From Escherichia phage REP5: a stretch of 64,000 bases of DNA. Every line of letters begins with the position of its first letter. Positions within the stretch are counted from its first letter, which is position 1. Where the stretch lies: the sequence record OQ174504.1, one strand, 5' to 3'. The notes beneath the pieces were generated by a model. The model saw only the letters and a list, made by a program, of their open reading frames with translations. It did not search any database and was not told where the DNA came from. The position numbers were made by a program, and so were the translations under genes. Positions 10,407 to 13,329 of the stretch are shown piece by piece.

Positions 10407-10835
10407 ATGAAAGAGCATGTAGGTAAAGAGCTTGACATTGTAGATGCAAAGACACAGAGATATATAACTACTGTTAAGTTTCTTGGAATTAGTGATATGA
10501 GTGATTTTTATCCTCTCCACTGCATAGTGCTAGACAAATTTGAGGTTTGTGGTATTAATTTTAATGAGGATAACTTTATAAGCTTTGATAAGGACGGTTT
10601 CTGGCGTGGTAAGAACCACCCTCAAGCAAATGATTTTGATATGCGTCTAGTGATACCACAAAAAGGTAACCAACAAAACGTAAAAGATATCCTTGTAGAA
10701 GCCTATGCAGAAGGTATAATAGATGTTGTGAATGATGTTGAAAAAGCTTTAAAACTCATCATGCCACATTTAGAATCTGGAAAGCTGACTTTAGAGATGC
10801 TTAATAGGGTTATTCGGAGAGCTTATGAAAATTAA
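10407..10835 (+). CDS. Hypothetical protein
   Basis: 142 aa ORF. Confidence 0.6.
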   Translation: MKEHVGKELDIVDAKTQRYITTVKFLGISDMSDFYPLHCIVLDKFEVCGINFNEDNFISFDKDGFWRGKNHPQANDFDMRLVIPQKGNQQNVKDILVEAYAEGIIDVVNDVEKALKLIMPHLESGKLTLEMLNRVIRRAYEN

Positions 10836-11364
10836 AGAAGTTGAAGGTAACTATCTAGTCCTTGATTGGAGTGATGTTCAAGAAGCACTCTCCAAAGAGA
10901 GTCTTAGCATACTAGAGCAACTTATCTTCTCAGTACGGCATATCAGAGAAGTTAAAAATGGTAAAGAGCCACTTGAAGGAATCTTTGTAGAGAAGTCTTA
11001 TCCGTTCTATGAAGACACCTTGCAGAAAGTTAAAATGTACTTTAAACAGAAGAACCGTAAAGTGGTCACTATGGTATCTCTTGGTGGACAGAGTATGTCT
11101 GTGATGGAAGATATCAACCCTAAGAGACCGAGTAAAGGCGTTTGTATAAAAATCACAGGACATGAAGAGTATATCTCAGTGGATGACTTTAGTGCATTCT
11201 GTAATGGGTCTTGTGTCTTTAATGGTTTTCACTATGATATCCGAGTATACCCAATCAAGGGAGATGATATCATGATGCAGGTATTCGATAACAACAATGG
11301 ATTCACTCATTTTTATCAGACAACCAAGTCATCACTGAAGACAGTTCTGGAAACACTGATTTAA
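10825..11364 (+). CDS. Hypothetical protein
   Basis: 179 aa ORF, last gene of plus block. Confidence 0.6.
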   Translation: MKIKEVEGNYLVLDWSDVQEALSKESLSILEQLIFSVRHIREVKNGKEPLEGIFVEKSYPFYEDTLQKVKMYFKQKNRKVVTMVSLGGQSMSVMEDINPKRPSKGVCIKITGHEEYISVDDFSAFCNGSCVFNGFHYDIRVYPIKGDDIMMQVFDNNNGFTHFYQTTKSSLKTVLETLI

Positions 11365-11370
11365 AATATC

Positions 11371-11400
11371 TTAAGAGCCTCCTTAATTGGGGGCTTTTTA
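11371..11400 (+). terminator. Rho-independent terminator
   Basis: Hairpin agcctcc..gggggct followed by ttttt. Confidence 0.5.
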
Positions 11401-11459
11401 TTGAGTAAAATTTACGAAATTTATATTTTTTATAAAATTTTATCGGTTGTCCCAACCTC

Positions 11460-12640
11460 TGGGTCACCATCATATGTGAATAAAAATATCTATCCTTCTT
11501 AACAACCTTCTTAATCTTACTCTCTATATATAGTTATATAGTACTATATAGTATCTTAGTATCTATCTAGTGGTCTTAATAGCCCTCTGTATAAGCCTTC
11601 TAACAAGCCCTCTAACAATCCTTCTAAACACTCTTCTAACAAGCCTTCTTAACAACCTATACAATCACCTTAACCATCTCTCTATACCCTCTTAGAAGCT
11701 CCTATACACCTCTTAATCTCTAGGTTACCTGTGTTACTTAACAGTAACCCATTATGTCAGCTATGTTACCCTCTATAGGTGTTCACTAGGTATTACTAAG
11801 CCTCTATATAGACTGTTTTAACAAACTTAACAGGAATATCTTTACAGACCTTATCTCACAAGGTCTAACACGGTACTAACAAGGTATCTTATAAGCCTGT
11901 TTATGCCTGTATTTTTAAAAGACTGTCTAGGTAATTATTCAGAATTTTAAAATTTTTATAAAATAGGACTATCAAGTCATTTTTTAGGGTCTTTGAAGGA
12001 ACTCAAAAATATCTGTAGAAGATGTATATCTGCTTGGTAGCCCTTAACAGCTCCCTTACAAGTACTTTGCAAAATTTTAAAATATCCTTAACAATCTCTT
12101 AACAACTCTCTCAAGCTTTTAACATCTCTTTAGAGGTCTTAACAGATTCTTAACAGAACTAACAAGGCTGTAACAAGTTCTTAACAGTCAATACATGGTC
12201 TTTACAGAGTCTTAACAGATGACTAACAAGAGCTAACAAGTTAATTTTTAAGAGTTATTTTGTTAAGATAATTAACAAGTTCCTAACAAGTGTTTAATCT
12301 TTTTAACAAGCTATTAACATGGTCACTATCTCTGGTCTTATCGTTCCCTTTCTTTCTTAGTGATTCTCTAAACATACCTCTTAAAAGCCCTCTATAGCTC
12401 TTTGTAAGCTCTTTTAAGCCTCTTCCTAGTAATTACACCCCAACTATACAGACACCTATTTATAAGGCTTTACAGGAGCTTTAAAGGCTATGTCAAAGAC
12501 TCTTACAAGGCTTTTACATGATTTTAACAGAGATTTAACAAGGGGCTAACAAGTCTCTAACAAGTGCCTTAAAAGCATAACTATGTAGGGATTGTTAAGA
12601 AATTGTTAAGAAAATGTTAAGGGGGCTAGCATTTACGTAA
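11460..12640. repeat. Non-coding array of dispersed short repeats, consensus YTAACARG (more than 25 copies)
   Basis: No ORF of 60 aa or more; cttaacag / ctaacaag recurs every 10-40 bp on the plus strand; AT-rich. Confidence 0.7.
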
Positions 12641-13020
12641 CTTTTAAGCTACTTCAAAGTAACTTTATAGCCCCTATAACATACTTTTAAGACACTATCA
12701 AGCCCTTTTTAATAGTTCACAAGATAGCTAACGAGATGATAAAGCTTACACCCTTATAAGGTTCTTTTAAGGCTCTAGAAAGCTCTATAAAGGGCTTTTT
12801 AAAGGGAGTTAATGCAATCCCTTAAGTTGGGTTGATAAGGCTGTTATAGGGCTTTATAGAGCGTTTAAATGGTTGCCCTTCCCTTTCGGGTTATGGGCTT
12901 ATATTTAAGTTGATTTGATAAAAGGCTATAGGGTAGACTATAGAGTTATTGCTTTTTAAGGTCTGATAAGATTCTGGAAAGGAAAGGGAAAGGGTTGTAT
13001 AAGGGATTTGATAAGACGTA

Positions 13021-13045
13021 AAAAAGCCCCTATGAGGGGCTGTAT
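13021..13045 (-). terminator. Rho-independent terminator of minus-strand block
   Basis: Hairpin agcccctcataggggct followed by T-run on minus strand. Confidence 0.5.
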
Positions 13046-13059
13046 AAAGGTATCTGGGG

Positions 13060-13329
13060 CTATTTAGCCCCGTTGCGTCGATTAGTTAGTGCCTTCTTTG
13101 TCGTAGTACAGGGAGACAATTTTTCTCCCCAATAGTGATAAGTATAACCATCCTTGAGAACTTCTTGTTTTGTTTCCTCCCAGAACTTTTCTGAAGGATT
13201 ATAGCCTTTGATAGTCTGACTGATAAGACCTTTCACCATTTCAAAGGCGTTATCAGTTCCTACAATGTCAAATTTAACATCCAGAGAGGAAAAACCGAAC
13301 TCGTTAGCAGTAGCGCGGATAGTTGCCAT
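13060..13329 (-). CDS. Hypothetical protein
   Basis: 89 aa ORF preceded by conserved cassette and RBS TAGGAGA. Confidence 0.6.
   Translation of the reverse strand: MATIRATANEFGFSSLDVKFDIVGTDNAFEMVKGLISQTIKGYNPSEKFWEETKQEVLKDGYTYHYWGEKLSPCTTTKKALTNRRNGAK

Follow-up and report, generated by a model that had tools for sequence, protein, structure and literature searches.

Within the 64,000-nucleotide stretch of DNA from Escherichia phage REP5 analysed here (sequence record OQ174504.1; hereafter ‘the window’) lies a non-coding gap, poor in open reading frames (ORFs), at positions 11365–13059. We find that this gap contains the direct terminal repeat (DTR) of the phage, a short, exact repeat of 591 bp that occurs once in replicating DNA and at both ends of the virion chromosome; an assignment shown by homology and by published experiment. 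The gap as a whole is probably the genome-end / concatemer-junction region of a Felix O1-type (Ounavirinae) phage, its array of helically phased sequence units serving terminase recognition and cutting.

The window belongs to Felixounavirus; its gap is 100% identical to that of Escherichia phages REP6 and REP7, and 80–93% identical to its counterpart in about 250 Felix O1-type records (256 Felixounavirus-type records match). Several records, submitted by several laboratories, break within the gap at one identical base: in those of E9, H12, CRP22, ZX4221 and NBSal004 the first base corresponds in every case to window position 12626, with E9 and CRP22 carrying identical repeats of 580 and 579 bp, respectively, at both record ends, which map to window positions 12036 and 12626. 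The same sequence is therefore found at both virion ends, as an exact repeat, in these two phages and also in Erwinia phage M7 (Kolesnikvirus), where a terminal repeat of 444 bp occupies the syntenic place. The ends are fixed and non-permuted, as seen from the shared start of the five records, from Sanger-defined ends that fall within 2–8 nt of them, and from Kolesnikvirus records that break at two fixed points. For E9 and H12, direct terminal repeats were reported by their authors on the basis of PhageTerm. For UAB_Phi87, ends were determined by Bal31 digestion and run-off sequencing (Bardina et al. 2016, PMC4837284), and the 608-bp DTR printed in that paper is the reverse complement of the homologue of window 12034–12618; its length fits exactly (a 614-bp homologue, minus 8, plus 2). 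The SpeI fragments given in the same work (4322 and 2819 bp, against 4431 and 2751 predicted) fit only within about 70–110 bp, the mapping being settled by the printed DTR sequence. Earlier still, short terminal repeats had been inferred for Felix O1 from genome size (Whichard 2010). The large terminase (TerL) is reported to cluster with DTR-type terminases (Bardina 2016); the gene for TerL lies outside the window, and its identity as TerL is confirmed. The DTR of this phage group is thus already known, and the element we describe is the same as the published Felix O1-type DTR.

It follows that the two gene blocks which the initial annotation took to be convergent transcription units are in fact the two ends of a linear genome: in each, transcription runs outward and a terminator closes the block. 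Convergence holds on a circular or concatemer map, of which the window, with its single repeat copy, shows the junction form; physically, the blocks are opposite ends of the chromosome, with the 591-bp DTR between them on that map. Transcription units were likewise described as converging between genes 23 and 24 of Felix O1 (Whichard 2010), a junction that corresponds to the gap.

The gap is crowded with a short motif, at a density and with a strand bias that agree with what was first noted from the letters alone. On the + strand we count 26 copies of YTAACAR (15.3 per kb, as against 0.5 per kb elsewhere), and the core, TAACA, occurs 31 times on the + strand and 7 times on the − strand, where the rest of the window predicts ~2.4 per strand and dinucleotide shuffles of the gap yield 3.4 ± 1.6, with a maximum of 9 in 500 shuffles; a frequency far above chance. 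The exact octamer, YTAACARG, is present 29 times in the 64-kb window (~15 expected, counting both strands); 13 of these lie at 11600–12564, and every one of the 13 is on the + strand. No second TAACA cluster is found elsewhere in the 64 kb. A more general 8-bp frame, CT-N4-AG, is represented by 59 copies in the gap, compared with 11.5 ± 3.0 in shuffles, and accommodates both octamers recognised in the initial annotation (cttaacag and ctaacaag) together with the CTTTTAAG / CTCTATAG-type units of the right half.

These units are arranged with a helical period. Successive TAACA copies are spaced by exactly 11 bp in 11 of 30 intervals, the remainder being mostly 9, 10, 12, 20 or 31 bp; autocorrelation at a lag of 11 gives z = 10.4 for the gap and z = 5.2 for the right flank of the DTR taken by itself, and the unit positions inside 12036–12626 are coherent at a period of 10.5 bp (vector strength 0.65, p about 0.0005). 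In their density, strand bias, helical phasing and evolutionary conservation, the motifs look as arrayed protein-binding sites do, and we regard them as plausible, putative sites of this kind; the suggestion of arrayed sites for a DNA-binding protein, made at the outset, thus stands in outline, its protein partner excepted.

Working inward from the boundaries of the DTR (Table 1), we see that both are inverted copies of the sequence G(G/C)TAGCCC(CC)TTAACA, and therefore that the two virion ends look alike when read inward. Arrays A and C extend this symmetry, making the ends of the DTR inverted repeats of one another, with pairs joining 12041–12105 to 12592–12623. The majority of the + strand TAACA copies (20 of 31) are located in the DTR. 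The spacing pattern of array A (11, 20, 20, 11, 9, 11, 11) is common to Felix O1, Mijalis and SUSP1, and nearly so in phiEa21-4; the arrangement of array C recurs in phiEa21-4/M7. The TTTGCAAAATTTTAAAATATC core is the sole segment that BLAST still finds in the Ounavirinae of Erwinia, Pectobacterium and Enterobacter, its columns being invariant in the alignment; the same core resembles a sigma-70 −10 element on both strands, as judged by consensus matches only. Immediately outside the left boundary, both the M7 record and the Sanger-determined end of UAB_Phi87 terminate directly after TGTATATCTGC. In this same neighbourhood (12010–12033) ATATCTG occurs twice, giving ATCTGT at 12011 and ATCTGC at 12028; a motif of the ATCTG type is too short to be significant alone, about one per strand being expected in the gap by rough estimate, yet the TGTATATCTGC block is conserved across genera all the same. 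Separately, we considered a single-stranded panhandle formed by the displaced DTR and found it unsupported (DNA fold z = −1.75, with 6 of 100 shuffles folding as well).

Table 1. Features of the gap and of the direct terminal repeat (window coordinates; the AT-rich palindromes of the initial annotation are among them, and its terminal hairpins appear as the two intrinsic terminators, which point inward from either side)
Feature	Position	Strand	Remarks
Left flank of DTR	11365–12035		Unique sequence just inside the right-end repeat copy in the virion; ten + strand TAACA copies
Intrinsic terminator closing the + strand (lysis/late-side) gene block	11379–11403 (stem-loop 11379–11393)	+	Stem-loop and T-run, directly after the stop of the coding sequence 10825–11364
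TATATAG array / AT-rich palindrome	11525–11571		Left flank
Variable 12-bp tandem array	11581–11655		Left flank; unit AAGCCTTCTAAC, about 5 copies
Very conserved block	11765–12014		Left flank; 92–96% identity to 8 relatives
AT-rich palindrome	11932–11965		Left flank
TGTATATCTGC	12023–12033	+	Conserved element lying just beyond the left DTR boundary; position shared by Felixounavirus, Mooglevirus, Suspvirus and Kolesnikvirus (phiEa21-4/M7)
DTR, 591 bp	12036–12626		Single copy in the circularly assembled window; at both ends in the virion
Left boundary, DTR start	12036–12049		GGTAGCCCTTAACA
Array A	12043–12322	all +	16 TAACA cores (12045 to 12315) in CTTAACAG / CTAACAAG units; begins 7 nt inside the left boundary
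TTTGCAAAATTTTAAAATATC core, palindromic AT block	12066–12086 (palindrome 12060–12089)		Most widely conserved piece, ~30 nt inside the left boundary
Central DTR segment	12377–12510		TAACA-free CT-N4-AG units (CTTAAAAG, CTCTATAG, CTTTTAAG and similar), about 11-bp spacing
Array B	12525–12564	+	Four TAACA units, exactly 11-bp spacing
Array C	12591–12621	-	Three inverted units (TTGTTAAG, TTGTTAAG, ATGTTAAG), exactly 11-bp spacing; abuts the right DTR boundary
Right boundary site	12615–12630		TGTTAAGGGGGC|TAGC; mirrors the left boundary in inverted form; same sequence in Felix O1, Mijalis and UAB_Phi87
Right flank of DTR	12627–13059		CTTTTAAG / CTATAAAG-type units at 10–11 bp; unique sequence just inside the left-end copy in the virion
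Intrinsic terminator closing the − strand gene block	13025–13041	-	Directly after the stop of the coding sequence 13060–13329

A syntenic gap of 1.1–1.7 kb is present in every Ounavirinae genus checked: in Felix O1, in Mooglevirus (Mijalis), Suspvirus (SUSP1) and Kolesnikvirus (phiEa21-4), and in Pectobacterium phage Arno18. Within Kolesnikvirus, a DTR of 439 bp has been reported from PhageTerm for Hafnia phage SPARTY, again at the syntenic position. Across genera the gap retains 67–79% identity, compared with 54–63% for neighbouring genes; the right flank (76–79%, against 54–63% in the adjoining genes) and the left flank are each better conserved than the genes beside them. At the level of single positions, conservation within the DTR is 96% for the TAACA cores and 85% for the remaining positions. 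Even in Kolesnikvirus, where DNA similarity to the window is down to about 60 nt, the repeat holds most of the TAACA copies, with a spacing of 11, 20, 20, 20, 9, 11, 11 and inverted copies by the right boundary. Taken together, core conservation, the kept spacing and a gap more conserved than genes are signs, drawn from sequence comparison, that the arrays are under selection. The only poorly conserved parts of the gap are the 12-bp array at 11581–11655 (identity to relatives 0.64) and a hairpin-containing segment at 11715–11764 (0.41); both look like slippage or indel hotspots, and could serve as strain markers.

How might such an array act in packaging? Recurring every 10.5–11 bp, i.e. once per helical turn, the units would offer a binding platform along one face of the DNA for a packaging protein; this could be a recognition subunit akin to a small terminase, or else an accessory factor wrapping or coating the junction. 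Once bound, the protein would direct the nuclease of the terminase to the two boundary sites, which are related by symmetry, with cuts in opposite strands and subsequent strand-displacement synthesis leading to duplication of the repeat. Opposite-strand cutting followed by displacement synthesis is the classical model for T7-type DTR phages, and boundaries with two-fold symmetry are what this model of duplication needs.

That said, a number of points weigh against this picture. No candidate for the binding protein emerged among the neighbouring genes or beside TerL; a small terminase can be recognised neither there nor in the careful annotation of Bas63, which lists none, and the genes adjoining the gap are without known function. 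The units also reach beyond the repeat, about 600 bp to its left and about 400 bp to its right, and the TAACA copies of the left flank are poorly conserved (66%), so some of them must be dispensable. Only in some relatives does phase coherence over long range reach significance. The ends of this particular phage are placed by reference to relatives that are 90–93% identical and have identical boundary sequences, and the boundaries derived by next-generation sequencing differ from those derived by Sanger sequencing, by 2 nt at the left and 8 nt at the right, which makes the exact cut positions given here, and the polarity of the cuts, provisional. Finally, the arrays may have a part in replication, in recombining the repeats or in protecting the ends, instead of or besides packaging.

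The boldest form of this last thought, which we put forward only tentatively, is a ‘phage telomere’: the ~25 phased CT-N4-AG / TAACA sites of each repeat would be bound by a small protein, either phage-encoded or a conserved host protein that recognises tandem repeats, which would coat one face of each end, both defining the terminase cuts and capping, pairing or recombining the ends after injection. Were this so, the repeat would have a function beyond terminase recognition, and one not described for any DTR phage. Rather unlikely, in our estimate, is a rival reading in which the arrays bind a protein for some job other than cutting or packaging, such as pairing of the two repeat copies for recombination into concatemers or circles, protection of the ends from RecBCD, or titration of a host regulator that binds tandem repeats. 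Arrays are indeed found on both virion ends, phasing along one face is typical of proteins that coat DNA cooperatively, and conservation across different hosts (Escherichia, Salmonella, Citrobacter, Erwinia) favours a binder that is phage-encoded or else very conserved among hosts; set against this, there is no candidate protein, and a symmetric layout abutting the boundaries is more simply explained by terminase site selection.

Alternatively, the phased repeats could be the iterons of a replication origin, bound by an initiator that melts the adjacent AT-rich palindromes. Direct-repeat arrays do adjoin such palindromes (11932–11965 and 12060–12089), the gap sits at the maximum of cumulative GC skew, and 11-bp arrays in two opposed orientations recall the low-affinity DnaA arrays of oriC. 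The skew extremum, however, coincides with the switch in gene orientation, and is therefore no independent evidence for an origin. Counts in the gap reject any enrichment of DnaA or integration host factor (IHF) sites, there being one consensus DnaA box (TTWTNCACA, at 11475), two under a relaxed pattern, and nothing that matches the IHF consensus. None of the adjacent genes resembles an initiator, tens of kb separate the gap from both the replication genes and the presumed early, divergent promoters, and the arrays are framed exactly by the boundaries of the DTR; we rate an origin as improbable.

The initial annotation had also been reminded of the injection-stop region of T5, where, on this reading, entry would pause as the repeat region binds a host or membrane factor, resulting in transfer in two steps. 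The loose positional analogy stands: in both cases an untranslated, highly conserved, repeat- and palindrome-rich region is tied to a terminal repeat. The likeness goes no further, there being no shared sequence, motif or DnaA-box layout and nothing that indicates an injection stop. Alignment with T5 repeat region 3 (BLAST, word size 7) returns chance matches only; that region has 1 TAACA, and a 15-mer direct repeat (DRD) of its own, TGTGCAAATCCGACA, and neither this 15-mer nor the IRD'/IRC' motifs of T5 have a likeness in the gap. Paired DnaA boxes, around which the T5 region is organised and of which T5-like phages have eight, are absent from the gap with its one consensus box. Furthermore, a DTR of 0.6 kb that is devoid of genes would leave a first-step fragment with nothing to express, and transcription of the two terminal gene blocks runs toward the ends; nor did we find two-step injection reported for Felix O1-type phages in open-access text. 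We therefore think an injection stop very unlikely. Scarcely more credible is a non-functional spacer, i.e. the decayed tandem amplification of an 11-bp unit between two terminators, for whilst the variable-copy array at 11581–11655 and the indel-prone 11715–11764 do show turnover of the slippage type, and 11-bp tandem repeats of a generic kind occur often in unrelated viral contigs, conservation of the gap across genera equals or exceeds that of its flanking genes, its cores in the DTR and their spacing are retained as far as the Erwinia phages, and experimentally defined genome ends lie within it.

Turning to the gene context, the gap is bordered by a + strand coding sequence (10825–11364) with its stop at 11364 and by a − strand coding sequence (13060–13329) with its stop at 13060. 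The ORFs adjoining it on the left (10407–10835 and 10825–11364) agree with the gene boundaries of REP6, not with those of REP7. Counted from the implied coordinate in the REP6 record (OQ174505; 87,152 bp), however, 64 kb would overrun its end, and the window thus seems to stem from a copy of the genome that was opened or circularised differently. The genes on either side belong to families of unknown function, with no Pfam hit. The longest ORF inside the gap is 56 amino acids (aa), such that the early statement that it holds none of 60 aa or more is correct. A search of Rfam at a permissive E-value gave no match better than E = 0.35, and we reject a hidden gene or structured RNA, the sole Rfam hit being a chance match at the upstream terminator. 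Several deposited genomes (e.g. PP886229, 1–1157; JN225449, 14525–15312) have ‘hypothetical proteins’ of 25–55 aa annotated in the homologue of the gap, also inside the terminal repeat, and other public records leave it blank or mark it ‘repeat_region’. Because the repeat structure of the gap is 11-bp periodic, these small ORFs are probably annotation artefacts. More widely, most of the ~280 public records of this phage group have been opened arbitrarily, with the gap blank or filled with spurious ‘hypothetical proteins’ of 30–55 aa; recognising it as the DTR and its flanks gives annotators the true chromosome ends and orientation.

As to novelty, we found neither the phased TAACA / CT-N4-AG arrays nor the inverted boundary sites nor the conserved flanks described in the open-access literature, though a description may exist elsewhere (e.g. 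the FO1a work cited as Marti 2013). In open-access text, published accounts of Felix O1-type DTRs (UAB_Phi87, M7, SPARTY) give repeat length and sequence only, and the PhageMaP paper on Bas63 has nothing about the gap region; the internal architecture of the DTR is, apparently, undescribed. The way in which terminases of the T7 type locate short terminal repeats and duplicate them is still little understood. In the Felix O1 group the array is clean, highly regular and strongly conserved, its boundary sites mirror one another, and the phages that carry it are genetically tractable (Bas63) and used in biocontrol and typing; the question is therefore directly testable.

One further observation concerns the window at large. 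GATC has zero copies in positions 1–64000, against 180 ± 12 expected from dinucleotide-preserving shuffles; an extreme case of avoidance, presumably directed at GATC-targeting restriction or at systems of the Dam/MutH type.

We also scanned viral contigs for four TAACA at 11-bp spacing. This recovered Ounavirinae contigs; the other matches were mostly perfect 11-bp tandem repeats of unrelated units, for which reason the pattern lacks the specificity needed to delimit a wider family, and we reject that idea. In three unrelated viral contigs of 128, 86 and 33 kb (L060 9701–10000, L087 5230–5345 and L025 2610–2830, respectively), we observed imperfect intergenic arrays of TGTTAA(C/G) / TTAACA at 11-bp spacing and in both orientations, which resemble the Felix O1-type arrays in style.

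Amongst known systems, the closest analogue is the concatemer junction of T7, which likewise has a short, exact DTR (160 bp). CCTAAAG repeats in and beside the T7 terminal repeat were reportedly described by Dunn and Studier in 1983; by direct count, we find 13 same-strand copies in and next to the DTR, at 13-bp spacing. Both phages thus show a strand-biased motif of 7–8 bp in more than ten regularly spaced copies within or beside the DTR; here, the 31 + strand copies of TAACA, 20 of them within it. The two differ in motif (CCTAAAG versus YTAACAR), with no homology between them, making T7 an analogue rather than a homologue; in spacing (13 bp versus 10.5–11 bp); in placement, most copies here being internal to the DTR; and in the inverted array found at one boundary here, unlike T7. 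A short conserved element abuts a DTR boundary in each case, ATCTGTT in T7 (at its right boundary; L020 161–167) and ATCTGC(TT) here. ATCTGTT is the pause signal of T7 RNA polymerase, a mechanism that cannot apply as such to the present phages, as Felix O1 encodes no phage RNA polymerase. We know of no settled function for the short-repeat arrays of T7. The comparison with T5 is more distant: there too an untranslated region rich in repeats and palindromes, and highly conserved among relatives, stands at the inner edge of the terminal repeat, whereas that repeat is 10 kb long and carries the pre-early genes, in contrast to the 591 bp, gene-free, of the DTR described here. Outside the phages, the parC/ParR iterons of plasmid R1 and the low-affinity DnaA arrays of oriC are helically phased tandem binding arrays. 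The motifs differ and the likeness is architectural only; what these systems have in common with the ends of the Felix O1-type chromosome is an arrangement of short sites, head-to-tail every 10.5–11 bp (11 bp for the R1 iterons), in two opposed arrays.

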